NCBI GenBank assembly: GCA_964596115.1
Contig: CAZQRW010000003.1
Location: 5,883-69,882, forward strand
Source: an uncultured bacterium
Lineage (GTDB): Bacteria > Hydrothermota > UBA3072 > B12-G15
Reading direction: 5' to 3'
Length of the DNA stretch: 64,000 bases
Positions within the stretch are counted from its first letter, which is position 1; each line of letters begins with the position of its first letter. The position numbers were made by a program, and so were the translations under genes. Positions 7,095 to 64,000 of this stretch are shown here, in pieces. The notes under the pieces are model-generated. The model was not told the origin of the DNA and did not search any database. It saw only the letters and a program-made list of their open reading frames with translations.

Positions 7095-7122
7095 TTTACA
7101 CAATTTGATTTTTGTATATAAT
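7095..7122 (+). promoter_or_regulatory. sigma70-like promoter (TTTACA-16-TATAAT) for the M14 peptidase gene
   Basis: -35 TTTACA at 7095-7100, a 16-nt spacer, and a perfect TATAAT at 7117-7122. The RBS AAGGAGGAAGG at 7131-7140 and the GTG start at 7142 lie downstream. The ATG at 7112 used by the ORF track sits inside the -10 box, so it is unlikely to be the true start. Confidence 0.5.
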
Positions 7123-7141
7123 CTGTAAAAAGGAGGAAGGT

Positions 7142-15805: not shown

Positions 15806-15814
15806 TATTTATGA

Positions 15815-15886
<72 letters not shown>

Positions 15887-15891
15887 TTTTT

Positions 15892-16299
15892 ATGAATAGG
15901 ATTCTTATAATATTAGGTTCGAAAGAGGAAGAAATACTAAAAAAAAGGGTTTCTCTGGCAAAAAAGATTTCAGAGAAATTTTTTTTTAGTAATGTTATTC
16001 TTTCTGGTAGCAATGGTGAGGCAGAAAAAATGGAAAAATTATGGGGGAAAGATGCACTGCTTGAAAAGGCATCTTTAACCACCAGAGAGAATCTACTCCT
16101 CTCAAAAATTTTTACAGAGAATGGAGATATAATTACTATAGTAACGGATTGTACCCATAAGTTTCGGACCTATTATCTTGCCAAGAGAATATTTCCACAA
16201 AATAGAATTGAAATATATACCGTGAATCTCCCTTTAAAATCCATTGTCTCAAAAATATTATATGAGGTCTCAAGACTGATCAGGAATGCATTTGAATAA
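15892..16299 (+). CDS. DUF218 (YdcF/SanA-like) domain protein
   Basis: 135 aa from the ATG at 15892; the longer track ORF overlaps the tRNA. Motifs ILIILGS, ILSGSNGEAEKM, TTRENLLLS and IVTDCTHKFRTYYLAKR fit the DUF218 pattern. Confidence 0.6.
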   Translation: MNRILIILGSKEEEILKKRVSLAKKISEKFFFSNVILSGSNGEAEKMEKLWGKDALLEKASLTTRENLLLSKIFTENGDIITIVTDCTHKFRTYYLAKRIFPQNRIEIYTVNLPLKSIVSKILYEVSRLIRNAFE

Positions 16300-46371: not shown

Positions 46372-47969
46372 TGGCAATAAAAGGATCACTTAGAGAAGCA
46401 TCCTTACCTGATGTGGTACAGATGCTGGCTTTAGGAAGAAAAACTGGTATTCTGAGTGTTACCAATGGTGAAATGCTTGCACATATTTACTTTGAAGAAG
46501 GCAAATTAACAGGGGCTGATATTGTCAATAGGGAAAATAAAGTAGGGGAGCTGCTGGTAAAGGCTGGTAAGATAACCCCTGAACAGCTTGACAGTGCACT
46601 GGAGAAACAAAAAAGTAGACGAGGTGTACCCATTGGGGAGATATTATATGAAATGGGGTTAATTGATGAGAAGACTCTTCAGGACGCATTAATAGGACAG
46701 ATGAAAGAGACACTTTTTAATTTATTTTCCTGGAAAGACGGTCTTTTTAATTTCGAACCAGGCGAAAGTAAGGTTAAGAAAATAATTTCTATCAGCATAA
46801 AGGCAGAAGACTTACTTCTTGAAGCAGCAAGGCTCGCAGACGAGATTGGTGTTGTGGACCTACCTCCAGCAGATAGTATTCTTCAGAAGATGGGCGGTGT
46901 AAATATTGAAGAACTCGATGAATTTGAAAGACAAGTATTTGAAGTCATTGATAATAAAAAAACAATGGAAGAAATCCTTTCCTCTATAAGTATGGATGAA
47001 TTTGAGACGATGAAAGCAATTGGAAGATTAAAAAAGAAAGGTGTTATTACATCACGCAAGTTTACCAATATTGCGCCTGAGAAGGCGGCTTCAAAAATTG
47101 CTGAACATGAGAATCTTGGATTGGCGTTTCTACAGATGCATATGTATGAAGAAGCTGAGAGAGAATTCAAGAGGATTTTAGATTTTCGTCCCGATGATTA
47201 CAGGGCAATGTTTTATCTTTCAATTATAAGGTATAAATTAGAAGATTACAAGGAAGCGGCAAGTCTTATAGAAAAAATTAAAGATAGTCAATTTGAACAT
47301 CCATATATTTACTCTAACCTTGCAGTTTATTATGAAAAACTTAACGATTTAAACAAGGCATTAACTTTAGTTGATCACGGGCTTCAGAGATGGAATTCAA
47401 ATTTAGAACTTTTGTTAAATAGAGGTATAATTTTGATGAAAATGGGTCGATACGATGATGCTATCAATGCATTTAACAATCTTTTGAAGGTTAATAATGA
47501 AAATACATATGCATATTTTTTTATAGCTCTAATAAATATACTCCAAAATAAGATTGAGCATGCATTAAATTTTTTACTTGATGGATTACGCTACAAACCA
47601 AAGTTTCCTGAGTACTATAATAATATTGCCCGTGTATACGAAGAAACTGCTGAGTTTGAAAAAGCAGAGGAGATGTATAAAAGGGGACTCGAAATAGATC
47701 CTGCGTATCAACTTATCCGACTTAATCTTGCTAATTTCTATTATAAAAATGGTTACTATTCATTAGCAGAGGAAGAATATCTTAAGCTTATTTCATCTGA
47801 TTATAAAAATGGGGATATATTTGCGAAACTTGGGAATATTTATTTTAAAAAGGGAAACAAAAAAGAGGCACTGCTTTATTGGGAAGAATCGCTTAAATTC
47901 AATCCAGATGATTTGACTGTATTAAAGAATATAAAAATTGTAAAACAGGATTATGGATTGGGCATTTGA
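46371..47969 (+). CDS. PATAN (DUF4388) domain protein with C-terminal TPR repeats
   Basis: 532 aa. The N-terminus GSLREASLPDVVQMLALGRKTGILSVTNGEMLAHIYFEEGKLTGADI has an alpha-helical insert (GELLVKAGKITPEQLDSALEKQ...GEILYEMGLIDEKTLQDAL) typical of PATAN. Then at least 6 TPR-like repeats. Confidence 0.65.
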   Translation: MAIKGSLREASLPDVVQMLALGRKTGILSVTNGEMLAHIYFEEGKLTGADIVNRENKVGELLVKAGKITPEQLDSALEKQKSRRGVPIGEILYEMGLIDEKTLQDALIGQMKETLFNLFSWKDGLFNFEPGESKVKKIISISIKAEDLLLEAARLADEIGVVDLPPADSILQKMGGVNIEELDEFERQVFEVIDNKKTMEEILSSISMDEFETMKAIGRLKKKGVITSRKFTNIAPEKAASKIAEHENLGLAFLQMHMYEEAEREFKRILDFRPDDYRAMFYLSIIRYKLEDYKEAASLIEKIKDSQFEHPYIYSNLAVYYEKLNDLNKALTLVDHGLQRWNSNLELLLNRGIILMKMGRYDDAINAFNNLLKVNNENTYAYFFIALINILQNKIEHALNFLLDGLRYKPKFPEYYNNIARVYEETAEFEKAEEMYKRGLEIDPAYQLIRLNLANFYYKNGYYSLAEEEYLKLISSDYKNGDIFAKLGNIYFKKGNKKEALLYWEESLKFNPDDLTVLKNIKIVKQDYGLGI

Positions 47970-48720
47970 GTATCTGAAAAGAACTATTAAAGAAATATTG
48001 AATTTTGAACCGGAGAATTATAAGGTTAGGCCATTTATAAGGAGGATAAGGTCAAGGATGAGAAGTGTAGGTATAATGGAATATTCTAAATATGCTGATT
48101 TCTTAAAAAATCATCCAGAGGAAGTAATTAAACTCAAAGAGACATTGACCATTAATGTTTCGAAATTTTTCAGGAATCCATCTGTATTTTCCATTATAGA
48201 GAATGAGATTTTTAAAAGACTTTCTTCTCCTATCACAATATGGAGTGCCGGTTGCGCAACAGGTGAGGAACCTTATACTCTTTCAATGATCTTGTTAGAA
48301 TCTGGAAAGACAGGTAAGATCATAGCTACAGATGTTGATGCATCAGCAATAAAAAAAGCACAGGATGGTGTATATGAAAAGACATCCCTCTCGGAAATGT
48401 CTCCCTATATCATTTCTCGGCATTTTAGTAAAGAAAATGGTAAGTATAGAGTAAATGATAATGTCAAAAAACTTGTTGAATTTAGAATTCTTGATCTGAA
48501 GGAGCTTGAAGAATTTAAAATGATTTTTGATGTCATTGTCTGCAGAAATGTATTAATATATCTTTCAAAGGAGTTCCAAGGGGAGCTCATTAAGGGTTTT
48601 GCTAATCATTTAAAGGAGAGAGGATTTCTTATTCTCGGTATGGTGGAGGGAATGTTCGGTATTGGCGAGGATTTCTTCGTTCCATATAATTTAAGGGAGA
48701 GAATCTACGTAAAAAAATGA
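47953..48720 (+). CDS. cheR: chemotaxis protein methyltransferase CheR
   Basis: 255 aa with an N-terminal helical domain and a SAM-binding domain (IWSAGCATGEEPYTLSMIL, VIATDVD). Confidence 0.9.
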   Translation: MDWAFEYLKRTIKEILNFEPENYKVRPFIRRIRSRMRSVGIMEYSKYADFLKNHPEEVIKLKETLTINVSKFFRNPSVFSIIENEIFKRLSSPITIWSAGCATGEEPYTLSMILLESGKTGKIIATDVDASAIKKAQDGVYEKTSLSEMSPYIISRHFSKENGKYRVNDNVKKLVEFRILDLKELEEFKMIFDVIVCRNVLIYLSKEFQGELIKGFANHLKERGFLILGMVEGMFGIGEDFFVPYNLRERIYVKK

Positions 48721-49193
48721 AAAAGTTATTTGTAAAGGTAGGAGATATGAAGGCTGCCAAAGATTCATCCCTGTTAATTACACTTGGGCTTGGCTCATGC
48801 GTTGCAGTAACAATTTATGAACCAGAAAAAAAGATTGGGGCGTTACTCCATTTTCTTTTGCCAGAGGGAGATAGAAACGGAAGTTCACCATTTAAATACG
48901 GAGATAAAGGCATAGAAATGATGGTTAAAGCTTTGGAAAATTTAGGTGCACAGAGGAACAAAATGGTCGCTAAACTATTCGGGGGGGCATTAATGTTTGC
49001 CCAATTGATAAGAACACCGGAGAATTCTATAGGGGTGAGAAATTTAAAGAAGGCAAGGGAAGTTCTTAATAGATTAAATATACCAATTGTTGGCGAGGAT
49101 ACAAACGGTGATTACGGAAGAAGTATTGAGTTTAACCTGAAAGACGGATCAGTTCGTGTTTCCTCGTATAAAGCTGGGGTTAAAGTTATATGA
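48717..49193 (+). CDS. cheD: chemoreceptor glutamine deamidase CheD
   Basis: 158 aa with the conserved GLGSCVAV and catalytic Cys/His region. Confidence 0.85.
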   Translation: MKKLFVKVGDMKAAKDSSLLITLGLGSCVAVTIYEPEKKIGALLHFLLPEGDRNGSSPFKYGDKGIEMMVKALENLGAQRNKMVAKLFGGALMFAQLIRTPENSIGVRNLKKAREVLNRLNIPIVGEDTNGDYGRSIEFNLKDGSVRVSSYKAGVKVI

Positions 49194-50209
49194 TAAGGGT
49201 GCTCGTAGTAGACGATTCGCTATTTATAAGAAGTCTATTAACAGACATACTTGAATCGGAAAAAGATATTGATGTAATCGATACAGCTAAGGATGGGATT
49301 GAGGCAATTTCAAAGACCCTAAACTTTAGGCCAGATGTTATAACAATGGATGTAGAAATGCCTCGTTTAAATGGTATTAAGACCGTTGAAAAAATAATGA
49401 AGGAAAGACCCACGCCAATTATTATGATAAGTGCATACACCAAGAGAAATGCGGAGATAACCCTGGAAGCACTTTCAAAAGGTGCTATTGATTTTATAAC
49501 CAAACCTGGTGGACCTGTAAGTTCGGATATAGGGAAATTGAAGAACGATATAATTACAAAGGTTAAAATAGCCTATAGGGCAAATATTACTTCATTAAAT
49601 ATAAAACCTACCAGGGATGTAGTACCTGGTTCAGAGAAAAGAACATTTAAAATTGTAGTAATTGCTTCTTCCACTGGTGGCCCAAAGGCACTCTCTCACA
49701 TAATCCCAAGATTACCAAAAGATTTTGCAGGTTCCATTCTCGTTATTCAGCATATGCCAATGGGCTTTACAGGACCACTTGCTGAAAGGCTTGACAGGGT
49801 TTCAAATGTTAAGGTTCTTGAGGGGAAAAATGGAACAAATGTCAGACCTGGAACAGTGTACATTGCTCCCGCAGGTTTTCATATGAAGGTTGATTCGAAA
49901 TTAACTATCTTTTTGACAAAGGATCCTCCTCTGCATGGAGTAAGACCATCTGCAGATGTAACTATGATGGATGTTGCCAGACTTATGCAAAAGAATTCAA
50001 TTGGCGTAATTCTGACAGGAATGGGTAGAGATGGTAGTATGGGTGTTAAGCAGATTAAAAAAATGGGTGGTAAAGTAATCGTTCAGGATAAAGAGACTTC
50101 TACTGTTTATGGAATGCCGAAATCTGCACTTTCCACTATTACTCCTGATATCATTTCCCCTCTTGATAATATTGCAGAGGAAGTGATCAGGTTTATTGAA
50201 AATGATTGA
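49190..50209 (+). CDS. cheB: chemotaxis response-regulator protein-glutamate methylesterase CheB
   Basis: 339 aa. REC domain (VLVVDDS..., DVITMDVEMP) plus a C-terminal methylesterase (SSTGGP, HMPMGFTG). Confidence 0.9.
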   Translation: MIRVLVVDDSLFIRSLLTDILESEKDIDVIDTAKDGIEAISKTLNFRPDVITMDVEMPRLNGIKTVEKIMKERPTPIIMISAYTKRNAEITLEALSKGAIDFITKPGGPVSSDIGKLKNDIITKVKIAYRANITSLNIKPTRDVVPGSEKRTFKIVVIASSTGGPKALSHIIPRLPKDFAGSILVIQHMPMGFTGPLAERLDRVSNVKVLEGKNGTNVRPGTVYIAPAGFHMKVDSKLTIFLTKDPPLHGVRPSADVTMMDVARLMQKNSIGVILTGMGRDGSMGVKQIKKMGGKVIVQDKETSTVYGMPKSALSTITPDIISPLDNIAEEVIRFIEND

Positions 50210-50966
50210 AGAAATAGAAAACAGGATAAAAGAAATTGAAGATAAAATAAGAAAAAAGAAGGATTTTACTATTGAACTTAAATTACTTAAAAAAGAATTT
50301 TTAAAATACAAGGCTTATATATTTTCTGTCGAAAATAGAATACAGGATATCGAGGCAAAACTAGCCCCTGCCAGGATGATGGGAAAGTTGAGGTCTGCTG
50401 ATGTTGATATTCAAACTCTTCTGGATAGTGCCTGGAATAATATAGTAAATGGTAATTATAAGGAAGCCGTTAAAGTGTTAAAAAAAGCACGAGCCCTTTC
50501 TCCAAATAATGAAAAAGTTCATTTATATCTGGGTTGGGCATTTACTTTACTTGGGAAGTATAATGAGGCAATGGCTGCCTATCAAAATGTGCTAAAAAAA
50601 GATCCCTTTAATCAACTTGCTTTGACAAATATAGGATTTATTAATTACAAATTAGGAATATATGGAGAGGCAATCGAAAGATTATCAAAAATAATAAAGG
50701 AAAATAAAGATAGACTGGCTGTATTGTATGCAAATTTTTATCTTGGCATAATATATTATGAAAGAGAAATGTATTTTGATGCCATTGAATTTTTTAATAA
50801 GGCAATAAAGGCTGGACCAAATCTTTTTGAAGCATACTATTATCTTGGAAAGGCATATATGAAGTCAGGAAATAAGAAATTAGGTGATGAGGTCTGGGAT
50901 AAGTTGCTGTCTTTAAAGACAACGAATATATGGTCTCAGAAGATCGAGGAGGAAAGAAATGGTTGA
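50196..50966 (+). CDS. TPR-repeat protein
   Basis: 256 aa with an N-terminal coiled coil, then TPR repeats (AWNNIVNGNYKEAVKVLKKARALSPNN...). Confidence 0.7.
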   Translation: MKMIEEIENRIKEIEDKIRKKKDFTIELKLLKKEFLKYKAYIFSVENRIQDIEAKLAPARMMGKLRSADVDIQTLLDSAWNNIVNGNYKEAVKVLKKARALSPNNEKVHLYLGWAFTLLGKYNEAMAAYQNVLKKDPFNQLALTNIGFINYKLGIYGEAIERLSKIIKENKDRLAVLYANFYLGIIYYEREMYFDAIEFFNKAIKAGPNLFEAYYYLGKAYMKSGNKKLGDEVWDKLLSLKTTNIWSQKIEEERNG

Positions 50967-51771
50967 AGAATATTGGGGTTTTAAGCTTAAGCCCTTTCTG
51001 AATACGCCTGATACTCAATTTTTATTCAGAAGCGAGTGTTTTAATGAAGGGTATGCCAGAATTTTATACAATATTAAAGAAATCAGGGGAGGACTGACAT
51101 TGATTACCGGAGAAATTGGCAGTGGTAAAACATACCTTGCCTATGCTTTGAAAGAAGATCTTGGCAAAGAAGGGGAACCAGTGGTTCTTCTAACAAACCC
51201 CACTTTTTCTCCTACTGGCTTTTTGAAAACTATAATTGAACAATTTGGCATTGGAGAAAACGAAAAGATCTCGAGATACAGGGTGAAACTTTTAAAGAAG
51301 ATAGAGAATATTCTTAATGAAATCAAGAGAGAGGGTAAAAATGCAGTTATTATGATTGATGAAGCCCAGGTGTTGAGGAAAGCCTTATTAGAGGAGATAA
51401 GATTACTGCTTAACTTTGAAGATAAAGATGGTAAACTTTTGCAAATCGTAATGCTAGGGCAGCCCGAAATGGCAAAAAAAATCAAAAAAATGCCTCAGGT
51501 TAAACAAAGAATAAATGTTAGGTACCATATTGGACCTCTCAGTAAGGAGGAAACTATAGAATATATTTCTCATAGATTAAATGTTGCAGGTGGTGAGATA
51601 AATATATTTAAAAAAGAAGCAATTGATAGAATATTTAAATATTCTAAAGGAATACCCAGGGTTATAAACAATATTGCACAAAATGCATTATTTGTTGGTA
51701 TGAGTATGGAGGCTAAAAATATAAATGGAGAAATAATAGATGCAGTAGCAGTAGATTTGAGGATATTATAG
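50959..51771 (+). CDS. ExeA/GspA/MshM-family AAA+ ATPase
   Basis: 270 aa. PFLNTPDTQFLFRSECFNEGYARILYNIKE, Walker A GEIGSGKT, Walker B VIMIDEAQ, and LGQPEM...RYHIGPL...Y, as in ExeA-type secretion/pilus assembly ATPases. Confidence 0.75.
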   Translation: MVEEYWGFKLKPFLNTPDTQFLFRSECFNEGYARILYNIKEIRGGLTLITGEIGSGKTYLAYALKEDLGKEGEPVVLLTNPTFSPTGFLKTIIEQFGIGENEKISRYRVKLLKKIENILNEIKREGKNAVIMIDEAQVLRKALLEEIRLLLNFEDKDGKLLQIVMLGQPEMAKKIKKMPQVKQRINVRYHIGPLSKEETIEYISHRLNVAGGEINIFKKEAIDRIFKYSKGIPRVINNIAQNALFVGMSMEAKNINGEIIDAVAVDLRIL

Positions 51772-51772
51772 A

Positions 51773-52465
51773 ATGAAAAAGAGAAAAAAGATTTCCTTCC
51801 AAAAAATGCTTGAATTAAAGGAAAAATCAGAAAAGAAGATAAATAAATCAATAAAGAGTAAAACGGTTAAGGCAGAGGCTGCAAATATCAAGGAAGAACC
51901 AAAGCAACCAGCAAAGCTATCAGTACAGAAACAGCACAAAAAAATAGAAAAGGAGCAGAAAATAGTTGAGGATACAGGTTTACCGTTATTAGAACCAAAT
52001 CAGATAGATAAAGGTAAAGCCATTGTGTTAGATGAAATTTTGGTAGTAAAGATAAAAAACGAATTTTATGGACTTCCGGTTGAGTATGTCACTGAAATAT
52101 CAGAGCTTAAGGCCGTCCCAACACCTGATATGCCTGATTTCATCGCAGGTATAGTTGAAGTAAGAGAGAAGGTTATTCCAGTTATTGATCTTGCGGCAAG
52201 ATTTGGTCTTGGGAAAATAGAAGGTAAAGTTTTACCTGTAGTTATAATTAATGTAGGAGATGAATCAATCGGTTTTCAAATCGAGAAGATCATTGAAATA
52301 GAAAAAATGAAAGACAGGGTAATAATGGCTTTACCAGATAACTTTAAGGAGAGATATCTTTTAGGAGCAATTGAATATAAAGGCAGGGTTTTAGCGATTA
52401 TTGACCCCGGTTCCCTTCTAAGAGAAAGTGAATATAAGGGATTAAAGAAGATTAGAAATGAATAG
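51773..52465 (+). CDS. cheW: CheW-like coupling protein with Lys-rich N-terminal extension
   Basis: The C-terminal ~140 aa form a CheW domain ([44 protein letters not shown]). The N-terminal ~70 aa are K/E-rich and low-complexity. Confidence 0.8.
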
Positions 52466-54140
52466 CATATCAAAAAAATATGCACTTTATACAGTTTTAC
52501 CAGGAATTGTAGGCACTATTCCTGTTGAGATTGTGGGTATAAGGTTTTATGCAGGTTTACCAGCAGAAAGACTACTTCCCCTATGCCTTTTAGTTTTTAT
52601 CATTGCATCATCCTTATCCGTTATTTATTATTTTTTTCACTATTACAGGATGGAAAGGATTATTTCGGAAGATAATGCGAATGGATTGTTCCAGAGTCCA
52701 ATCATTTCTGGAATTCATACATTGATAAATTTTGCTATTTTGGCCCCAATAATTTTTGTTATATATAATCACTTTAATGAACTTATTAGCAATACACAAA
52801 TTGGTAAGGTGTTTTTGGTCAATATTTTTGCAGGTTTGATTGTATCGGGGATTGTATACCCCCTTGGGGAATTGATAATAATGCCATATCTATACAAATA
52901 TGAACGAAAATTTAAAGGGATATCTTTATTTGTAAAATTATGCATTGTTCTATTAATTGGGTTAATCTTTTCGTGGTTTACTGGTGTACTATTTATCCGA
53001 TATAATCCATCGATATTTCTAATTTTATTGCCCATTTTTCTGACGCTTCTAACAATATTCAGAGTTCTTAAACCAATGAGGCTTTTTAATGAAGGCTTAG
53101 ACCAATTTATCTCTGATAAACCCAATCTAAGGTTGAAGATGAAAGTAAAGACAGGCGATGAATTCGAAGATCTGTCTGAGAAGGTAAATAAGTTTGTAGA
53201 AATAGTATCAGAGATTGTTAGTAGAATTAAAGAAATCTCAGAAAAAATGATGAAATCTTCAGAATCAATTTCTACCTTATGTAAGAAATTAGCATCTTCT
53301 ATCAAGGAAATTATCAGCAGTATTAATAAACTCAACAATGAAAATATTAATTCTCACCAATATGTAAAGCATGTTAACGTAGAAGCTAGAAACGTCACTT
53401 CAATGGCAGAGAATATTGAATCTCAAATGAAAATGCTAACAAAAGTTACACAGGATTCAGATAAAAGAGCAGTTGAAGGAGAAAAAAAGGCAGAAGAGGT
53501 TCTTTCGAGGATAAAAGAGAATATCAACTCTATAAAGTCAACAGAGGAGAGAATGAAGGACCTTATTGCAACTGTTCAAGAGGTTAACAGTTTTGCAGAT
53601 ATTTTATCAGAAGTGACAGAGGATACAGATCTCCTTTCATTGAATGCTTCAGTAGAAGCTGCCCGTGCTGGGGAATACGGTAAAGGATTTGCAATAATTG
53701 CAGAAGAAATAAGAGGGCTCTCTAACCAATCAAAGGAATATCTTGATAGAGTTGTTTCAGTCTTAGATAGAGTAACCACTGCTTTTGAAAACTTCAGGAA
53801 TACACTTTCAGAAGGTATTAGCAAGATTTCAGGAAGTGTGGAATCAATGGATAATATTAAGGGTGCATTAAGTGAGATATCAGAAAATGTTACACTTGGT
53901 ACCAATATGACAAATCAGGTATCTGATACTATCAAAGAGGAAATAAATAGTATATCAAAGTTGTATAGTGTAATAAGCAATGTTTCTGAGACCTTTGGGG
54001 CAACTACTTCTGCTATAGAGGGAATTTCTTCTTCTTTAGAAGAACAAATGGCATCGATGGAGGAACTTAAAGGTATGACGGAAAACATGCTAAAAGTTTC
54101 CCAAGAGATGAAATTATCTATTGAGAGGTTCGAGGTTTGA
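52458..54140 (+). CDS. methyl-accepting chemotaxis protein
   Basis: 560 aa with multiple N-terminal TM helices, a HAMP-like region, and a C-terminal MCP signalling domain with the highly conserved [30 protein letters not shown]. Confidence 0.85.
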
Positions 54141-54565
54141 AATATTTGATTTTTAATTTAGGTGAGAATACATTTGGAATTTCCATAGATAAAGTTAAAG
54201 AGCTTGTAAAATTTAAAAGGTTGCGTAGGTTGTCGCAAATGCCTAAGTGGCTTTCGGGAATAGTTTCTTATAGAAAAGAGAATTATGGATATGTAAGATT
54301 GTGGGAGATTCTTAAGACCCCCTCCCCTGAAAAGGAAATAATTCTTTTTTTAACAGGGGTTGATCTGGTAAGCTTTGGTATTGGTAATTTGGCAGGGATC
54401 AAAGACATTTCAGTAAAGGGGGTATCACACTCTTTTTTAAGGCTAAAGTATATAGAAGGGATTGGTAATTTAAATGGTAATATTGTATTAATTATTTCTC
54501 CTGTAAATCTTATTGGATCAAGGAAAATAAATACGATTAAACAGTTACTTAAGGGGAGAAAATGA
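54137..54565 (+). CDS. cheW: CheW-like coupling protein
   Basis: 142 aa single CheW domain ([20 protein letters not shown]...). Confidence 0.75.
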
Positions 54566-55770
54566 GGAAGAAAGCATCTGTTATTGCAATCGGAAATGAA
54601 ATTTTAATGGGGGAAATAACAGATACAAACTCTACTTTTATTTCAAGAAAATTGTTTGAAAAAGGTATATTGACAGTCGTCAGATTGCAGATACCAGATA
54701 AAAGAGAAGATATTGAGCAGGCCTTGAGATTCTGTATGGAAAAAAGTAATATTATTATTACCACAGGTGGTTTGGGCCCAACGAATGATGATATCACAAA
54801 GAAGACAATTGCCAATTTTCTTGGCAGAGATCTTGTACTTGTGGATGATTTAAAAAATTGGGTAGAGGGTTTTTTTCAACGCAGAGGAATTCCAATGTCA
54901 GATGTGAATCTATCTCAGGCAGAGATTATAGAAGGTTCAAGATATATAATGAATCCTATTGGCACTGCTCCCGCCATTATCATAAATGTAGGCAAGAAAA
55001 AGATTGCAATGTTTCCAGGTGTACCATCAGAGTTATATGTAATGTTTGATAAATTTCTTGAAGGAATAGAGGGGAGTATACCAGTTACTACATTGCTCAG
55101 GACAACTGGAATAGCAGAATCGGACATATATAACGAGGTGAAAAAGGATGCACCCCAAAAGATACAAAAGATTATATATTATTATCCTACCTGGAGAGGA
55201 GTTGATTTAAGAATAGTGAGTTATGATATTGATTTACAAAAAGATGCAGTTAATTTTTTAAAGCATAAATTCGGCAACTATATTTATTCGTTAGAAGAAA
55301 AAGAGATTGAAGAAATTGTTGGCATTATGTTGAGGAATAAAGGCATTTCAATTTCTGTTGCTGAATCCTGCACGGGTGGTCTGGTTGCAGATTATATAAC
55401 TGACGTTCCTGGCAGCTCGGATTATTTTATTGGAGGAGTGGTTACATACTCAAATAAATCCAAGATAAACATCCTTGGTGTAAGGCAAAATGATATCGAC
55501 AGATTTGGTGCCGTAAGTGAAATAGTCGCAAGGGAGATGGCTGAAGGTGTTAAAAGTTTATTTAATGCTGATATTGGGGTTTCAACAACGGGTATTGCGG
55601 GCCCTACGGGTGAGAGACCGGGGAAGCCATTGGGACTTGTTTATATGGCAGTATCTTACAAAAATGAGACCATTGTTAAAAAACAAATTTTTCTTTCGCC
55701 ACGAAAAAGGGTAAAGGTAGCAGCCGCAACCTTCCTCCTTAATATGGTCAGGGAGGTAATAAAGGGATGA
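54562..55770 (+). CDS. cinA: CinA-family competence/damage-inducible protein (MoCF-like N-domain plus PncC deamidase C-domain)
   Basis: 402 aa. VIAIGNEILMGEITDTN, TTGGLGPTNDD, and the C-terminal AESCTGGL. Confidence 0.9.
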   Translation: MRKKASVIAIGNEILMGEITDTNSTFISRKLFEKGILTVVRLQIPDKREDIEQALRFCMEKSNIIITTGGLGPTNDDITKKTIANFLGRDLVLVDDLKNWVEGFFQRRGIPMSDVNLSQAEIIEGSRYIMNPIGTAPAIIINVGKKKIAMFPGVPSELYVMFDKFLEGIEGSIPVTTLLRTTGIAESDIYNEVKKDAPQKIQKIIYYYPTWRGVDLRIVSYDIDLQKDAVNFLKHKFGNYIYSLEEKEIEEIVGIMLRNKGISISVAESCTGGLVADYITDVPGSSDYFIGGVVTYSNKSKINILGVRQNDIDRFGAVSEIVAREMAEGVKSLFNADIGVSTTGIAGPTGERPGKPLGLVYMAVSYKNETIVKKQIFLSPRKRVKVAAATFLLNMVREVIKG

Positions 55771-57275: not shown

Positions 57276-58298
57276 ATGGAAGAAAAGAAAAAAAAGGCAA
57301 TAGAAGAAGCAATGAAGCAAATTGAGAGACAGTTTGGCAAGGGAGCTGTAATGGTCCTGGGTGGGAAGGAGATTGTTCAGGTTGATGTTATTCCTACCGG
57401 TTCTATCTCACTTGATTATGCACTGGGTGTTGGGGGGGTGCCACGGGGTAGGGTGGTGGAGATATTTGGTCAGGAGGCCTCAGGTAAAACTACCCTTGCC
57501 CTTCATATCATAGCCCAGGCACAGAGGTTGGGTGGTGCTGCGGCATTTATAGATGCTGAGCATGCACTTGATCCAGCTTATGCAAAAGTCCTTGGGGTTG
57601 ATGTAGACGATTTATTAATTTCACAACCAGATACAGGGGAGCAGGCGTTGGAAATCGCGGAAATGCTCACGAGAAGTGCTGCTGTCGACCTAATTGTTGT
57701 TGACTCAGTTGCTGCCCTTGTTCCAAAGGCTGAAATCGAGGGTGAAATGGGGGATTCTCATATAGGGCTTCAAGCAAGATTGATGTCACAGGCACTTAGG
57801 AAATTAACAGGTGTTTTGAGTAAATCTTCCACCTGTGCAATTTTTGTAAACCAGGTAAGGTATAAGATAGGTGTAATGTTTGGTAATCCCTTGACGACAC
57901 CTGGGGGGCTTGCATTGAAATTTCATACTTCAGTAAGATTGGAAATTAAACATATAGGTTCTTTGAAAGAAGGTGATAATAGTGTTGGAATAAGGGTACA
58001 GGTTAAGGTTGTAAAAAATAAACTCGCCCCTCCTTTTAAAACTGCCCAGTTTGATATAATATATGGTGAGGGAATCTCAAGGGAAGGGGAACTTCTCGAC
58101 CTTGGCGTACAGAATGGCGTGGTTATAAAATCAGGTGCCTGGTATACATATAGAGAGGAAAAGCTTGGTCAGGGAAAAGAAAATGCTCGAAGGTTTTTGA
58201 AGGAAAACAAAGACATTGCTGAAAAAATAGAGGGTGAAATAAAGGAGAAGTTAGGTATTGGAGGAGAAAAGGCTAAGACTGAACAGGATAAAGAATAA
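57276..58298 (+). CDS. recA: recombinase RecA
   Basis: 340 aa. Walker [23 protein letters not shown], and L2 loop [22 protein letters not shown]. Confidence 0.95.
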
Positions 58299-58845
58299 AT
58301 ACCAGGTTTTTTATGAAGATAAATTAATCGGTGAATTCCCTGTAAGACTCATAAATAAGATAGGTATAAAAGATGAAAAAATTGATGAGGAAAGATTTCT
58401 TCAAATTTTAAGTGATTATTTTATTCCTTACACCAAGGAAAGGGTATTAAGACTTATTACTTATAGGCAGAGAAGTAAGGAAGAAATAAGAAGATACCTT
58501 AACAGGCATAAATTCTCAAAAGATATAGCAGATGCCATAATAAAAGATTTTACACGGGCAGGATTGATAGATGACGTTTCTTTTGCCGAATTTTTTGCCC
58601 TTTCAAGATTTCGAATGAAACCTGTAGGTAAATTTTATATAGAACAAGAACTAAAAAAGAAGGGCATTTCATCTGATATTATTCACCGTATACTTTCCAA
58701 TTACGATGAGGAAGAAGCCCTTAAGAATGCATATGAAAGGGCAAAAAAAATATATCCCGATAACAAAGAAAAGAAGATCCAGTTTCTTATGAGAAGGGGT
58801 TTTGATATTTCAATGATTTTTGAAATTATTAATGAAAAAATGTAA
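58258..58845 (+). CDS. recX: recombination regulator RecX
   Basis: 195 aa helical-repeat protein directly after recA. The real start may lie downstream of 58258. Confidence 0.75.
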
Positions 58846-58963
58846 TTCGTGAATTGTGAGAATAGACAATAACTACGATATTATCCTCTCAGAGAGATAC
58901 AGGGATTGAATTTATATTGCCATTAATCAGAGTGAAAAATAGAATATAGGATAAAAAGGATTA

Positions 58964-58984
58964 CCCGGGGGCATCGCCCCCGGG
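58964..58984 (-). terminator. rho-independent terminator of the minus-strand OMP operon
   Basis: 9-bp GC stem CCCGGGGGC/GCCCCCGGG with a 3-nt loop. On the minus strand it is followed by TAATCCTTTTTATCC, and it lies 14 nt after the OMP stop codon. Confidence 0.6.
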
Positions 58985-58997
58985 TAAAAAGGATTGA

Positions 58998-60218
58998 TCA
59001 AAATCCCTTTGCGACAAACAGGTATCCTGCCATCATAGGATCTGTGCCTGTGAAATAGTCCCCAGGCATCCAGTATCCACCAGTAGCACCAATGGAGAAT
59101 TCCTTATTCAGATTTAATGATGCATAGAGGGCTATCTCATTACCCATTGCATTGGGCGTACCCTGTACAGTTTTATACATAAAGTAGTCAGCACGAATGC
59201 TGAATGCGGCAGCATCGTAACCAATATGTCCATTGATCACATTGAGGTTCGGTGTCACAAGATTAAATCCATAAGGGCTCCAGAGTGTGTAGGCAGGACC
59301 AAATCCTACCCATCCCTTATAAAAATCATTGGGATAGGGACCGTATGTTGGAGAGCCATAATCCTCATTCTCCGCAGTAGCAGGGTCATCACCTGAGAAA
59401 TAGTAGTATCCACCACCCACTGTAACAGGGGTAAATGTATAGTTAAGTCTTGCTGAATAATACATACCCTTGTAATCAACAGGTGTAGCTGCGCCATTAT
59501 TTCCCATCATCATTGCAAAATCACCAGTGTAGGAGAGACCCTTCATCGGTGAACCAGCAGAACGGACGCCTACCCACATTGGCTTATCATCACCCTCTGA
59601 TCTCAGGAAGCCAAAACCATTGACCTCAACGTTGCCTTCCATAAGCTTAACGGTAGCCCATACACCGCTAAGATCCTGATCAGGTGGAGGTGTTCCTGCT
59701 GTACCCATCAACATATAACCCATACCACCATTCTCTATAGCCCTGTAGGTGAAAAGATCAATACCCATCATATCGGTATTCACATTGATCTTTACACCTG
59801 TAAATCCATCCTCGCCACCATCAAAGGCAATGTCACCATAAGCCATAGGGATAATACCCACAGTAAATCCTACAGGGGTATCAAATAGATTCTGTGCACT
59901 AACATAGGCATGCATAATATGAGCGCCCATTCCAGCAACACCACTACCCAGTATAGGATGCATACCGTAGTTACCCCAGTCACCAATCCTGACAAGGGCA
60001 GTTACACCATTGCCAAAGTCAGCAGTTGCATTTAAATCTCCGTGAATATAATAGTGCATATCTCCGTCTGCAACACTCGAGTTAAAATCTGCATTCTGCC
60101 ACATAAATGCATAATCATAGAAAAGACCATGCCATTCAACAGTTACTCCCTGAACTGAAAATGTAGCAAGTAGAGTAATAGCTAAAATAGCCATTAATTT
60201 CTTCATAAAACCTCCCAA
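58998..60218 (-). CDS. putative outer-membrane beta-barrel (porin-like) protein
   Basis: 406 aa with a signal peptide (MKKLMAILAITLLATFSVQG) and a Gly/Tyr/Asp-rich sequence of alternating pattern. The C-terminal residue is Phe (...YLFVAKGF), as in outer-membrane beta-barrels. RBS GGGAGG. Confidence 0.5.
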   Translation of the reverse strand: MGGFMKKLMAILAITLLATFSVQGVTVEWHGLFYDYAFMWQNADFNSSVADGDMHYYIHGDLNATADFGNGVTALVRIGDWGNYGMHPILGSGVAGMGAHIMHAYVSAQNLFDTPVGFTVGIIPMAYGDIAFDGGEDGFTGVKINVNTDMMGIDLFTYRAIENGGMGYMLMGTAGTPPPDQDLSGVWATVKLMEGNVEVNGFGFLRSEGDDKPMWVGVRSAGSPMKGLSYTGDFAMMMGNNGAATPVDYKGMYYSARLNYTFTPVTVGGGYYYFSGDDPATAENEDYGSPTYGPYPNDFYKGWVGFGPAYTLWSPYGFNLVTPNLNVINGHIGYDAAAFSIRADYFMYKTVQGTPNAMGNEIALYASLNLNKEFSIGATGGYWMPGDYFTGTDPMMAGYLFVAKGF

Positions 60219-60240
60219 TTTAGATTTAATGTTAACAGTA

Positions 60241-61170
60241 TTATCTTACCCTCATTCCTGCAGTTTCATCCCAATGGAGTGGTTTGTCAAATTTAGGAAG
60301 TGGTGCACCAGGGACTTCCTTTATAGATACACCATATTTCCAATTAGGTGGGCATACTGCGATATAACGTGCATAACCACCAGCTCCATTTTTTGGCTTT
60401 GCAAATCCTATTACTATTAATGCACCAGCCTCAGGGACCTTGTCAAGATTTGTTACACCCTCTGCCTGGCAATAATGGTTATGCATAAGCCAATATTCAC
60501 CTTCAAGTGATGCAGTGGTATCTGTATCAAGTGGTTCGTGACCATGGAATAATATATGTCTCTCCAAATGAAGGAACTTTATGGCATCAAGACCGACACC
60601 AGCAAAGGGGAATTCGTCACATTTTTTCTTATCAGGCCATCTCTTTGACCAATCAGAACGAACCATCACTACAGAGCCAGCGGGTATTTTGCCGTGCTTT
60701 GCTTCCCAATCCTTGATATCCTGAACAGAACAATGATAACCAGGATCCTTAGCCACCTTGTCATGGATATCTATTACTACAAGGGGTCTTATCGCATAGG
60801 TTGCAGGAAGGTCACTTATAGTTGCTGCATATGGTTCCCAGTGAGCAGGTGGGTCTAACTGTGTCCCATACTGGTCAGTTGGGATATAGTAAGCTGTAGC
60901 AATAAATCCATGTTCCTTGTAGGTAAATACCTGGCCCTTTTTGACATAACCTGGCATTTCTTTACCAGCCTTGGCGGGGTAAAATTTTGCATTACCAAAG
61001 CCTACCCAGACAGGGATCGTAGGGGTCATATCATGCGTCAAATCCACATACTTTGCATTCACGAAGTACTTGTTATACACCTTCCATAACGGATAACCTC
61101 TTCCATGGACGTTCACAGAAATCCCGAACAACAAAACAACAGCACCAACAACATAAAACCTTCTGGACAT
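60241..61170 (-). CDS. secreted cyclase-family protein (PF04199-like; kynurenine-formamidase/arylformamidase fold), copy 1
   Basis: Signal peptide MSRRFYVVGAVVLLFGISVNVHG. Motifs QYGTQLDPPAHW and HGHEPLDTDT resemble the HxGTHxDAPxH and second metal-binding motifs of the cyclase family. The likely start is the ATG at 61170; the track's GTG at 61176 lies inside the SD. Confidence 0.65.
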   Translation of the reverse strand: MSRRFYVVGAVVLLFGISVNVHGRGYPLWKVYNKYFVNAKYVDLTHDMTPTIPVWVGFGNAKFYPAKAGKEMPGYVKKGQVFTYKEHGFIATAYYIPTDQYGTQLDPPAHWEPYAATISDLPATYAIRPLVVIDIHDKVAKDPGYHCSVQDIKDWEAKHGKIPAGSVVMVRSDWSKRWPDKKKCDEFPFAGVGLDAIKFLHLERHILFHGHEPLDTDTTASLEGEYWLMHNHYCQAEGVTNLDKVPEAGALIVIGFAKPKNGAGGYARYIAVCPPNWKYGVSIKEVPGAPLPKFDKPLHWDETAGMRVR

Positions 61171-61191
61171 GAACACCTCCTTAGTTTGTTT

Positions 61192-61227
61192 TCACGGATT
61201 TACATCTTTCCTGTTATCTTTTCTCAT
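61192..61227 (-). other. leader mini-ORF (MRKDNRKDVNP) with strong SD, upstream of cyclase copy 1
   Basis: AACAAGGAGGTGCG-ATG, then 11 codons and TGA. It ends 21 nt before the SD of the cyclase gene. Confidence 0.3.
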
Positions 61228-61312
61228 CGCACCTCCTTGTTATTTATTTTTACTTTCTGTTATGATAGACGAAGCAACCAACATATCTATCTGCTTCCCT
61301 GTATTTTTAGAA

Positions 61313-61341
61313 ATTTTAAGTAAAAATAAAAAATTTGTCAA
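61313..61341 (-). promoter_or_regulatory. sigma70-like promoter TTGACA-17-TAAAAT internal to the operon (drives leader plus cyclase copy 1)
   Basis: On the minus strand, TTGACA (complement of 61336-61341), a 17-nt spacer, then TAAAAT (complement of 61313-61318). Confidence 0.4.
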
Positions 61342-61391
61342 GTGTTTTTTTAGTATTATCGATTGCAAAATTCCACAGGAAAATCATATTA

Positions 61392-62318
61392 TTATCTCGT
61401 TCTATAACCCTTTGTTTCATCGTAATAGAGTGGTTTGTCATATGTCGGAAGAGGATACCCTGGATTTTCTTTTATAGATACACCATATTTCCAATCAGGC
61501 GGGCAGATAGCGATATATCTTGCATAAGAACCTGTACCGCCCAGGAATTTTGGGAAACCAACTGCAATAAGGGCACCAGCCTCTGGAACCTTGTCAAGAT
61601 TTGTTACGCCCTCTGCCTGTGTAAAGTTCTGATGTAAGATCCATGCTTCACTGGCAAAATTACTTGTAGTATCAGTGTCCAAACATTCATGTCCGTGGAA
61701 TAATATATGCCTTTGTTCATGGAGGAATTTTACAGCCTCGAGGCATATGCCAGGAAGATGAGATTCAAATGCTTCTCTATCGTCCCATTTCTTTGACCAA
61801 TCAGAACGAATCATTACCACAGAGCCTGCTGGTATTTTGCCGTGCTTTGCTTCCCAGGCCTTTATGTCTTTGATCTGACAGTGATAATCGGGTTCCTTTT
61901 CTGTCTGTTTATGGACATCTATTACTACAAGTGGCCTTATGACATATGTAACTGGTATCTTATCTTGTGTGGTTCCATATGGGTTGAAATGTGCTGGTGC
62001 ATCTAATTGCGTCCCCATTTGATCGGTTGGCAAATAGTAAGCATTACAACAAAAACCATGCTTTTTGTAATTGAAAACCTCACCTTTTTTTGCAAAACCT
62101 GGCACCTCAACACCACATTTGGTAGCGTAGAACTTCGGTTGCCCAAATCCTTTCCAAATTGACATATAGGGAGTGATTGTGTGACTTAAGTCTACAAGCT
62201 TTGCATTTTCGAAATACTTGTAGTACACATTCCATAATGGATACTTTGTTGCATAGACGTTCACAGAAATTCCGAATAACATAACTACTACACCACATAC
62301 ATAAAACCTTTTGGACAT
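61392..62318 (-). CDS. secreted cyclase-family protein, copy 2 (tandem paralog)
   Basis: About 65% identical to copy 1 over the full length, with the same motifs (QMGTQLDAPAHF, HGHECLDTDT) and signal peptide. Likely start at the ATG at 62318. Confidence 0.65.
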   Translation of the reverse strand: MSKRFYVCGVVVMLFGISVNVYATKYPLWNVYYKYFENAKLVDLSHTITPYMSIWKGFGQPKFYATKCGVEVPGFAKKGEVFNYKKHGFCCNAYYLPTDQMGTQLDAPAHFNPYGTTQDKIPVTYVIRPLVVIDVHKQTEKEPDYHCQIKDIKAWEAKHGKIPAGSVVMIRSDWSKKWDDREAFESHLPGICLEAVKFLHEQRHILFHGHECLDTDTTSNFASEAWILHQNFTQAEGVTNLDKVPEAGALIAVGFPKFLGGTGSYARYIAICPPDWKYGVSIKENPGYPLPTYDKPLYYDETKGYRTR

Positions 62319-62376
62319 AAACACCTCCTTACGTTTGTTTTTACAGATTTAAAACTCTCCTTTCATCATTATCATC

Positions 62377-62385
62377 TTACCTCAT
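62377..62385 (-). other. degenerate leader mini-ORF (ATG AGG TAA), homologous to the copy-1 leader
   Basis: Same AACAAGGAGGTGCT SD and ATG AG(A/G) opening as the 11-codon leader of copy 1, but codon 3 is TAA. Confidence 0.25.
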
Positions 62386-62397
62386 AGCACCTCCTTG

Positions 62398-62493
62398 TTA
62401 TTTGTGTTTCATTGCCCTTGATATAAAATAGGCAAGGCCACCGTATAGAATCACAACACCTATGACGAGCATAGCTATAGCAGATGCATTCAT
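62398..62493 (-). CDS. 31-aa hydrophobic peptide (MetS-like small subunit of the NSS transporter)
   Basis: MNASAIAMLVIGVVILYGGLAYFISRAMKHK forms a single TM helix. RBS GGTAAGGAGGAATA-ATG. The start overlaps the transporter stop (TAATG). Not in the ORF track because it is under 60 aa. Confidence 0.45.
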   Translation of the reverse strand: MNASAIAMLVIGVVILYGGLAYFISRAMKHK

Positions 62494-63956
62494 TATTCCT
62501 CCTTACCTTTTATTTTCATTAAGACTACAGATAGAATGATAAATAGAGCCACTATACCAAATCCCACGAATGAGACCCAGCCTGGATATCCACCGTATCC
62601 CTTTCTTACAGTGTTTATGATCTCCATTACGAGTGAGATACCCAGAATTATTGGCGTAATTATCATTATACAGACATCCCACCACCTGCCTATCTTTACT
62701 TCAGAAACACTGTTAACATATTCCCTCATCTTCGATGCCTTAATTACATATCCTACAACTATTGCTTCCAGCAGTCCCACCAATGTTAAAATATATGAGC
62801 AGGTAAAATGGTCAAAGATATCAATCCAGTAATAACCCGCACGAGTGGTAAAAAACAATCCCCCCAAAAATCCAAAAATTACAACGATGGGTAGTATAAA
62901 TTTTCTCGGGAATTTCCATTTATCCATAAAACCTGCGGTAAATGGCTCCACCTGGGATATTTGGGAATCAATCCCAAGTGTTAAAAGTAATATAAAGAAA
63001 ATCACACCAAAGAAGGCAGCCCCAAAAGGTAAAAGAGATATTGTAGTTGGATAAGTGATAAATGCCAGACCGATGCCACTTGATGCTACCTGAGGTACTG
63101 TGACACCCTTTGCCACGGCAAGATATCCGAGGGTGGAGAATACTGCAAATCCAGCAAAGAATGCTGTGCCACAGTTTGCAAGTGATGTTATGAACGCATT
63201 ATTTGCTATATCCGAATCCTTCGGAAGGTAACTGGAATAGATTATAAGAGACCCCATTCCAAGACTCAGGGTAAAAAATATCTGGCCATATGCAGCAAGC
63301 CATGGTTCCGGATTCAGCAGGGACTTAAAATTAGGTGTAAGGTAGTAATTTAAACCATCAACAGCACCCGGTAGGGTCAGACCCCTGACAACCATTATAA
63401 TCAGGATTACCCAGGGGATTGAAACTGTCCAGTAGATTTCTTTACCTATGCTTTTTGTTCCCCTTCTCAGGTAGTTATAAGACCACAGCCATGTTAATGC
63501 AAGACCAATAATAATCATCCAGTTAAGTCCCCCCAATTGACCGGGACCTGAAGAAATATGAAGGAATTTATTAAAGAAGAATGCATTTGGGTTTGCTCCC
63601 CACATTGCCTTAACAGAAAATACGATGTAATTCCATATCCATCCCATTATTACTGAGTAATATAGGAAAATAGACATAACAGCAAAGAGGGCAAGCCAGC
63701 CAATCCATTCCAATCCCTTTTTGATCTTTGCAAATGCTAAGGGTGCTCCGCCCTGTGCCATCCTCCCAAGCCCAAATTCAACAATTACAAGTGGTATACC
63801 AGCTGTAATAAGTGCAATAAAATAAGGAATTAAAAAGGCACCTCCTCCATACCGATAGGTAATATACGGAAACCTCCATACATTACCAAGGCCAATTGCA
63901 GCACCTATTGATGCAAATAGAAAATCAGACCTTCTATTCCATCTTTCTCTTTCCAT
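62493..63956 (-). CDS. neurotransmitter:sodium symporter (NSS/SNF) family transporter
   Basis: N-terminal NSS signature RERWNRRSDFLFASIGAAIGLGNVWRFPY and 11-12 TM helices. Likely start at the ATG at 63956 (RBS AAAGGAGAG); the track's upstream GTG at 63971 falls in the SD region. Confidence 0.85.
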   Translation of the reverse strand: MERERWNRRSDFLFASIGAAIGLGNVWRFPYITYRYGGGAFLIPYFIALITAGIPLVIVEFGLGRMAQGGAPLAFAKIKKGLEWIGWLALFAVMSIFLYYSVIMGWIWNYIVFSVKAMWGANPNAFFFNKFLHISSGPGQLGGLNWMIIIGLALTWLWSYNYLRRGTKSIGKEIYWTVSIPWVILIIMVVRGLTLPGAVDGLNYYLTPNFKSLLNPEPWLAAYGQIFFTLSLGMGSLIIYSSYLPKDSDIANNAFITSLANCGTAFFAGFAVFSTLGYLAVAKGVTVPQVASSGIGLAFITYPTTISLLPFGAAFFGVIFFILLLTLGIDSQISQVEPFTAGFMDKWKFPRKFILPIVVIFGFLGGLFFTTRAGYYWIDIFDHFTCSYILTLVGLLEAIVVGYVIKASKMREYVNSVSEVKIGRWWDVCIMIITPIILGISLVMEIINTVRKGYGGYPGWVSFVGFGIVALFIILSVVLMKIKGKEE

Positions 63957-64000
63957 ATTCTCTCCTTTCACTTTTTAGTAAAGATAACCATCTTTACCTC

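Follow-up and report, generated by a model that had tools for sequence, protein, structure and literature searches.

What does a bacterium do with an outer-membrane barrel, two secreted enzymes and a sodium-coupled importer encoded side by side? This question is raised by the last 5 kb of a 64-kb stretch of DNA (the window: 64,000 nucleotides of contig CAZQRW010000003.1, assembly GCA_964596115.1, from an uncultured bacterium). There, five minus-strand genes encode an NSS symporter, a MetS-like peptide of 31 amino acids (aa), two paralogous cyclase-family proteins (cycA and cycB) and a barrel. An earlier note, made from the letters of the window, took them for a horizontally acquired operon serving the uptake and hydrolysis of an amide- or formyl-containing amino-acid derivative.

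These five genes make up the downstream part of a seven-gene module, which runs from hom to the barrel gene and is cut by the window edge. A window edge can conceal the most informative genes, and here the two upstream ones, hom and an aldehyde dehydrogenase gene (ALDH), were invisible to the earlier note and are the strongest functional clue. Our preferred reading, which we see as much reason to accept as to doubt, is that this is a native, conserved module of a Stahlbacteria/WOR-3-like bacterium, in which uptake of an extracellular compound feeds the oxidation of homoserine to aspartate. The points of interest are a conserved, undescribed module and a large cyclase subfamily with a divergent active site.

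The module beyond the window edge

All positions below are window coordinates, and labels such as L001 denote the public contigs or GTDB loci used for comparison. Contig L001 differs from the window by 8 mismatches in 11.5 kb and is thus the same strain. On one strand it carries, in order, dapA, thrB, a 212-bp gap, hom, a 471-aa ALDH, NSS, metS (the 31-aa peptide gene), cycA, cycB and the barrel gene. Three of the genes outside the window pass their NCBIfam equivalog cutoffs (dapA 225.8 vs 206, thrB 284.5 vs 194, and hom 423.3 vs 373 for NF004912). Hom also matches solved homoserine dehydrogenase (HSD) structures over well-conserved stretches (PDB 3do5 from A. fulgidus, 8e-62; 4ydr, 4e-54) and, judged by these matches, is a canonical short HSD of the archaeal type.

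Inside the window, the five-gene minus-strand content that the earlier note described is borne out by ORF (open reading frame) calls, Pfam and NCBIfam, and its family assignments hold in searches of the same two databases.

Neighbours of the cyclase across lineages

With each GTDB species represented by one genome, a cyclase relative turned up in at least 575 species, from which 80 loci were kept, chosen by the cyclase alone. Neighbours were counted by tblastn with nine locus proteins and by de novo clustering of all neighbouring ORFs. The barrel gene immediately follows the cyclase gene in 22 of the 80 loci, and Hom lies within 6 kb of it in 17. Other neighbours are ALDH (12 loci), NSS (10), the tungsten aldehyde:ferredoxin oxidoreductase AOR (7), an IclR regulator (6) and the Na:alanine symporter AGCS (3), with the AOR, IclR and AGCS assignments confirmed by Pfam.

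ALDH occurs in none of the seven AOR loci, five of which have hom (L012, L013, L016, L024 and L025; also L097), and AGCS is found where NSS is absent (L022, L024 and L025). Gene orders vary as well: we find hom-aldh-NSS-cyc-barrel, cyc-barrel-NSS-hom, cyc-barrel-hom-aldh and IclR-hom-aldh-cyc-barrel-AGCS. The loci bear about ten phylum- or class-level labels, including WOR-3, Stahlbacteria, Spirochaetes, Calditrichaceae, Aminicenantes, Lentisphaeria, Deferribacteres, Melioribacteraceae, Cloacimonadota, Bacteroidota and two metagenome-assembled genomes labelled Clostridia/Eubacteriales, and their cyclases are 56-74% identical to cycB.

In a genome, hom is normally one gene among thousands. Its presence within 6 kb of the cyclase in about one-fifth of the loci, in varied order and with swapped aldehyde-oxidising and transport parts, is therefore the signature of a selected functional module. 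The path through outer membrane, periplasm and inner membrane that the earlier note drew from predicted localisations also holds, with a barrel, a secreted cyclase and a small-amino-acid importer co-occurring in many lineages.

A cyclase subfamily with an altered active site

Both cyclases far exceed the PF04199 gathering cutoff of 23.1 (cycA 129.2 bits, cycB 114.4 bits); NCBIfam has no model for them or for the barrel. Their homologues number more than 4,500 and are 52-80% identical across phyla, and JGI auto-annotation labels many of them ‘kynurenine formamidase’. By sequence, the closest solved relatives are the Ruegeria cyclase-phosphotriesterase 8f9x (C-PTE) and isatin hydrolases (3e-33 to 3e-23). 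Structure prediction, a check proposed in the earlier note, agreed as far as the fold: the AlphaFold model of cycA (pLDDT 79.4) has the PF04199 fold, with 8f9x (E = 3e-20, target-normalised TM 0.83-0.86) and isatin hydrolases as its best Foldseek matches and KynB also matching. At the active-site motif, model confidence is at its lowest (pLDDT <50, residues 99-101), so we draw no geometric conclusion.

C-PTE holds its alpha-zinc through H92, H96, D98 and E236 and its beta-zinc through D98, H224 and E236, with H102 nearby (PMC12135135). Profile alignment places Q100, Q104, D106, H110, E224 and E236 of our subfamily at these sites, i.e. all three histidine ligands (H92, H96 and H224) are replaced by oxygen donors (Q100, Q104 and E224). 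D106, H110 and E236 are invariant and align with the bridging Asp, the proposed catalytic His and the Glu ligand. In place of the canonical HxGTHxDxPxH motif, cycB has QYGTQLDPPAH and cycA has QMGTQLDAPAH. The QxGTQxDxPxH form and an extra invariant HGHExLD[TS]D block (HGHEPLDTD in cycB) are present in 120 of the 120 best homologues; a secretion-type N-terminus is seen in 117 of these and a lipobox in 16. An amide- or formyl-containing substrate is therefore not supported as specific, since HxGTHxDxPxH, the motif of formamidases and isatin hydrolases, is not what these proteins carry.

The subfamily can be set against two known groups. With isatin hydrolases and C-PTE (PDB 4j0n, 5nna and 8f9x) it shares the Pfam family, the fold (Foldseek probability 1.0, target-normalised TM 0.72-0.86) and the active-site Asp, Glu and second-shell His. 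It differs from them in the histidine swaps, the invariant HGHExLDTDTT block, N- and C-terminal extensions of ~40 and ~35 residues and an identity of only 25-31%, and its members are always secreted or lipoproteins. With the kynurenine formamidase KynB (PDB 4co9 and 4cog) it shares the superfamily fold, but identity is 15-16%, the binuclear zinc motif HxGTHxDxPxH is lost, the proteins lie outside the cytoplasm, and the neighbourhood of the cyclases lacks genes of the tryptophan or kynurenine pathway.

An altered metal site raises the possibility that QxGTQ proteins are not hydrolases. They could be periplasmic binding or chaperone-like proteins, or they could act as a lyase, an isomerase or a true cyclase on the compound that passes the channel. 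Loss of the three histidines fits this, as do the HGHExLDTDTT block, which has no counterpart in solved relatives, and the low model confidence at the motif. However, the three invariant residues aligned with the C-PTE site are the bridging, catalytic and ligand positions, many polar residues are strictly conserved (mean column identity 65% across phyla), as is typical of an active enzyme, and all members of the fold that have been characterised are hydrolases. We therefore consider a non-hydrolytic role decidedly unlikely.

Barrel and transporter

The barrel protein has a signal peptide, and its AlphaFold model (pLDDT 83.9) has 18 strands. The model's top Foldseek match in the PDB is AlgE (E = 7e-15, TM 0.68), followed by MOMP and the substrate-specific OccD/OccK channels, and the protein's 85 homologues are mostly from WOR-3/Stahlbacteria. 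The fold matches that of the alginate exporter AlgE, but the match to Pfam Alginate_exp (PF13372) is below threshold (17.4 vs 25.2 bits), and the 10 kb retrieved to each side of the NSS gene contain no alg genes. Like AlgE and OccD/OccK, the barrel is predicted to be an 18-strand monomer; unlike them, it is partnered with a secreted enzyme and not with a polysaccharide secretion machine, and its identity to them is 11-13%.

The symporter has a full-length SNF domain (PF00209, 417.8 bits) and passes NF037979 (60.4 vs 50). Its best 60 PDB matches are all eukaryotic SLC6 proteins (dopamine, proline, creatine, taurine, GABA and glycine transporters; E = 1e-84 to 1e-73), and bacterial LeuT-type proteins are not among these 60. 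The 31-aa peptide belongs to the MetS family of NSS small subunits (NF033493, 51.9 bits vs a cutoff of 25) and fails the MetS equivalog NF033494 of the MetPS methionine/alanine importer (24.3 vs 70). The arrangement is that of MetPS-type systems, i.e. an NSS gene followed by an overlapping gene for a single-pass peptide of ~30 aa that matches NF033493. It differs in the missed equivalog, in an NSS whose nearest solved structures are eukaryotic SLC6, and in the replacement of NSS by AGCS in some loci. The NSS/MetPS and AGCS families import small amino acids.

This resemblance allows for a simpler reading, in which barrel, cyclase and NSS work as a self-contained unit that takes up an unrelated small amino acid or a derivative (e.g. 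one like methionine or alanine, as for MetPS), with Hom, ALDH, dapA and thrB as mere biosynthetic neighbours. The MetS family takes its name from a Met/Ala importer, dapA, thrB and hom all pass biosynthetic equivalog models, several loci (L029, L059, L068 and L099) have the cyclase-barrel pair and no hom, and a Cys/Met-type gene beside hom in Melioribacteraceae (described below) could belong to ordinary methionine biosynthesis. Yet the 17 loci with Hom close to the cyclase cover many phyla and several gene orders, and AOR is usually present where ALDH is missing. Compact IclR-Hom-ALDH-cyclase-barrel units headed by a dedicated IclR have the layout of catabolic operons, and in this genome hom and cycB share a 48-nt promoter-like element. 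As the MetS equivalog cutoff is also missed, we regard a self-contained unit as rather unlikely.

A proposed route from an extracellular compound to aspartate

Under the preferred reading, a small extracellular compound would enter through the dedicated 18-strand AlgE-like channel and be converted in the periplasm by one or both of the secreted, diverged enzymes of the cyclase/isatin-hydrolase fold (cycA and cycB), releasing homoserine. The periplasmic step is presumed to be a hydrolysis. The product would be a small neutral amino acid, most likely L-homoserine, imported with Na+ by NSS/MetS. Hom would then oxidise homoserine to aspartate semialdehyde and ALDH would oxidise aspartate semialdehyde to aspartate, with the adjacent thrB and dapA offering branches to threonine and lysine. 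Homoserine is proposed as the imported product because dapA, thrB, Hom and ALDH all act on homoserine or aspartate semialdehyde.

Parts of this route have precedents. Conversion of homoserine by Hom and ALDH, via aspartate semialdehyde to aspartate, has been reconstituted with purified enzymes of canavanine catabolism, and dapA is present at the Rhizobiales locus too (PMC9533460). A catabolic, oxidation-biased HSD has been described for Arthrobacter (bioRxiv 2021.02.09.430557), and homoserine and acyl-homoserine lactones (AHLs) can be used as a threonine source via homoserine kinase (PMC4460637).

The canavanine pathway of Pseudomonas canavaninivorans and Rhizobiales (PMC9533460) is like our module in clustering Hom and ALDH beside an importer and a homoserine-liberating enzyme, with dapA at the Rhizobiales locus. 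It is unlike our module in using a cytoplasmic PLP (pyridoxal phosphate) gamma-lyase and an ABC importer, where we find periplasmic cyclase-fold candidates and NSS/MetS or AGCS. Our module also has a dedicated outer-membrane channel, an ALDH that AOR can replace, and a Hom that is an archaeal-type short HSD. The canavanine gamma-lyase CanγL is absent here, the exception being a distant Cys/Met-PLP gene in Melioribacteraceae. Two loci of that family, L030 and L038, have an Lrp-type regulator, then a gene for a 465-aa PLP enzyme of the Cys/Met-metabolism type (L030 1436-2833) and, right after it, hom-ALDH-cyclase-barrel. The enzyme best matches O-acetylhomoserine sulfhydrylase and methionine gamma-lyase, with no score reaching an equivalog cutoff. 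This layout recalls the canavanine gamma-lyase locus and could equally be ordinary methionine biosynthesis.

Several points weigh against the homoserine route. Most proteobacterial and cyanobacterial loci have the cyclase without Hom, ALDH or barrel, so the substrate need not be tied to homoserine; in these contexts we found no consistent partner, with peptide-type ABC binding proteins and Lrp regulators occurring occasionally. With all three canonical histidine ligands replaced, the hydrolase chemistry itself is uncertain. The ALDH matches no NCBIfam equivalog (its best hits, lactaldehyde dehydrogenase and ALDH21, are below cutoffs), and in the sister lineage ALDH is not adjacent to the module. 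In this lineage hom adjoins dapA-thrB and may be a plain housekeeping biosynthetic gene. Lastly, we infer homoserine as the transported intermediate from the neighbouring genes only.

Homoserine lactone or an acyl-homoserine (lactone) would be chemically attractive as the extracellular substrate, though no more than a lead. The lactam opened by isatin hydrolase is five-membered, and a single enzyme often has both phosphotriesterase and lactonase activity. The QxGTQ/HGHExLDTDTT branch, whose secreted members number in the thousands and span more than ten phyla, could be a so far overlooked class of periplasmic enzymes that open lactones or amides, with an all-oxygen (hard-metal) site and homoserine lactone or AHLs as substrates, which we consider a long shot. 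If it were so, the module would combine quorum-signal degradation with nutrient salvage, and anaerobic sediment bacteria would use it to convert the signal's head group to aspartate, threonine and lysine.

The module gives a testable function to a very large and widely mis-annotated subfamily, whose members are called ‘kynurenine formamidase’ though the formamidase metal site is absent. It also offers a possible way for uncultured anaerobes (WOR-3/Stahlbacteria, Calditrichia, Aminicenantes, Melioribacteraceae and others) to channel an extracellular compound into aspartate-family metabolism. The homoserine-to-aspartate route has so far been shown only in aerobic rhizosphere bacteria.

Native module or recent acquisition

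The earlier note pointed to a G+C content of 42-47% from 59 to 64 kb. The elevation is real and was overstated: the five successive kilobases have values of 0.452, 0.411, 0.394, 0.372 and 0.412 (i.e. 0.37-0.45), compared with ~0.31-0.41 elsewhere and about 35% for the window. By gene, the five range from 0.385 to 0.437 (0.353 +/- 0.025 for the 60 other ORFs taken as genes), and their GC3 is 0.344-0.357 against a background mean of 0.290 and maximum of 0.343. Raised GC3 (0.33-0.36) spans the seven genes from hom to the barrel gene, and dapA and thrB are not included.

To separate codon choice from protein composition, the expected G+C of each gene was computed by applying the codon usage of the window to its protein sequence. 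Expected values are already high for the five genes (0.380-0.420, background 0.355 +/- 0.021), so most of the rise is due to protein composition; a rise of 5-8 points in a low-G+C genome can stem from this alone. The residuals are +0.014 to +0.022, and native genes have similar ones (recA +0.015, the genes at 4938-6107 +0.018, 10212-11270 +0.017 and 7112-9676 +0.015). Synonymous-codon log-likelihoods, scored against the 64-kb background, are unremarkable for the barrel and cyclases (z = -1.4 to -0.3) and low for NSS (z = -2.8), and two other native genes are also low.

Other genomes behave in the same way. Across 20 other hosts, module GC3 tracks that of the host from 0.22 to 0.87, and in several low-G+C hosts, including Stahlbacteria locus L077, the module's total G+C is 3-6 points above its neighbours, as here.

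Taxonomic affinity, which rests on nearest named homologues, also argues for a native module. Orthologues of cycA are found only in the Stahlbacteria lineage (93% and 78% identical by protein search, 80% at Stahlbacteria genome locus L011), and the barrel's nearest homologues (72-68%) are from Stahlbacteria/WOR-3. RecA has a similar ladder of nearest relatives in the same groups, at 95%, 80% and 72-74%. Internal gene order is retained in the sister lineage, and dapA-thrB-hom-NSS-metS-cyclase is retained in one WOR-3 chromosome. Positional synteny is shown only within the module, plus dapA-thrB-hom in that chromosome: the flanking recA, recX, ligT and membrane-protein genes are beside the module in none of the 80 GTDB loci, and the sister-lineage flanks differ. 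The flanks contain no integrase or transposase, no flanking direct repeats were found, and the window's sole tRNA, tRNA-Met (CAT) at 15815-15886, is far away at 15.8 kb.

These results bear on the origin and chemistry proposed in the earlier note, taken here as a recently acquired island for an amide- or formyl-containing amino-acid derivative with arylformamidase-type chemistry. That idea draws on G+C and GC3 values of all five genes at or above the local maximum, the unusual codon use of NSS, flanks unlike those of the sister lineage, a patchy distribution across phyla that fits ancient mobility, and a fold shared with formamidases and isatin hydrolases. But amino-acid composition covers most of the G+C excess, the residual being that of recA and three other native genes; the elevation extends over hom and ALDH; L077 shows the same offset; the module matches its hosts in G+C; best homologues and RecA share one affinity; no integrase, tRNA or flanking direct repeats were found at the module; and the formamidase metal motif is not conserved. 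Recent transfer is thus not supported, the mild G+C excess reflects protein composition, and we judge the island as a whole very improbable. The earlier note had named native-like G+C and codon statistics and syntenic best homologues in close relatives as findings that would count against it, and most of this is what we observe. Transfer of the module in the distant past, a further point against a native origin, may nevertheless have occurred, given the small G+C residual, the top-of-range GC3 and the unconserved flanks.

Unit structure, promoter-like elements and duplication

Feature coordinates are given in Table 1.

Table 1. Features at the right-hand end of the window
Feature	Position	Strand	Remarks
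Intrinsic terminator hairpin	58961-58987	minus	Closes cycB-barrel unit; begins 11 nt past barrel stop codon
Outer-membrane barrel gene	58998-60206	minus	402 aa; no Pfam family above threshold
cycB	60241-61170	minus	Secreted PF04199 cyclase-family protein; nearer family consensus than cycA
Duplicated leader	61184-61277	minus	Copy of metS 3' end and cycA leader
P2 promoter-like element before cycB	61302-61349	minus	TTGACA, 17 nt, TAAAAT and conserved flanks
cycA	61392-62318	minus	Divergent secreted PF04199 paralog
metS, gene for MetS-like 31-aa peptide	62398-62493	minus	NCBIfam NF033493
NSS (SLC6/SNF) Na+-coupled symporter gene	62493-63956	minus	487 aa; Pfam SNF PF00209
3' end of upstream ALDH gene	63968-64000	minus	Last 10 codons and stop of 471 aa; translation EVKMVIFTKK*

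The true gene starts are ATG codons with AAGGAGG-type ribosome-binding sites (for cycB, AAGGAGGT ahead of its ATG at 61170), not those of GTG- or TTG-extended ORFs. For example, the end coordinate of 63971 in the earlier note belongs to a GTG-extended NSS ORF, whereas the ATG at 63956 gives the product found in public data: the exact ATG form is on 17 public metagenome contigs and the extended form matches none. Sequence inspection of the N-termini of the barrel, cycA and cycB shows positive charge followed by a hydrophobic stretch, which supports the signal peptides and secretion that the earlier note predicted for them.

The strong GC hairpin terminator is likewise confirmed. Its 12-bp stem has 9 G-C pairs and is followed by TCCTTTTTAT, a T-run; it folds with an energy of -24.9 kcal/mol (z = -4.3 against shuffles), and none of 200 shuffles folds as well. 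The claim of a single, tightly packed operon stands in part. Packing is close (e.g. the metS start codon overlaps the NSS stop codon at 62493), but there is a 221-bp gap between cycA and cycB with a strong promoter-like site, and the unit begins outside the window.

This site, P2, matches 11 of 12 consensus positions (TTGACA-17-TAAAAT). Its 48-nt stretch has one match in the 64-kb window, where none is expected by chance, and its 30-nt core has exactly two copies per same-strain contig, before cycB and, beyond the window, before hom (P1). P1 and P2 are identical at 46 of 54 positions. This suggests two putatively co-regulated units, P1-hom-aldh-NSS-metS-cycA and P2-cycB-barrel-terminator. A permissive Rfam search of the extended locus detected neither riboswitches nor leader RNAs, its sole match being a chance CRISPR-DR (E = 0.43).

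The gap also preserves a trace of how the two cyclases arose. Direct repeats D4 and D7 pair the duplicated leader with 62333-62435 at 73-79% identity, so the cycB leader is a degraded copy of the metS 3' end plus the cycA leader, and cycA and cycB (65% identical) therefore arose by tandem duplication. Both paralogs are present in the sister lineage in reversed order, so the duplication is old. In one population (L004 12787-13697 and L010, JGI 3300033156), cycB has a 19-bp deletion, equivalent to window ~60860-60880, that removes CCCAACTGACCAGTATGGG, which encodes the PTDQYG motif, and splits the gene into ORFs of 98 and 171 aa; the sequence is otherwise unchanged over 940 bp. Either cycB is a recent pseudogene there, which would imply redundancy with cycA, or the deletion is an assembly variant.

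Flanking regions

Upstream of dapA, L001 contains a stretch of 45% G+C (5033-5371) called as a 112-aa ORF. We considered it as a mobility gene and rejected it, as it consists of GC-rich hairpin repeats such as ctcccttcaagggcgagg, cccccttcgaggggg and ccctcccttgatgggaggg. Beyond this stretch, contig L006 has wholly different genes (an aminotransferase and a PfkB kinase), so there is a strain-variable junction upstream of dapA, and it falls outside the block of elevated G+C.

On the other side of the module, recA has the highest G+C among the background genes (0.428), and recA and recX (57276-58845) overlap by 41 nt. Directly upstream of cinA-ligT-recA-recX is a plus-strand chemotaxis cluster (~46400-54600) with CheR, CheD, CheB, two CheW, an MCP, and TPR and AAA proteins, named from Pfam labels on an identical contig. 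Further away, the mechanically called ORF at 15811-16299 overlaps the tRNA-Met gene, and at least its 5' part is probably non-coding.

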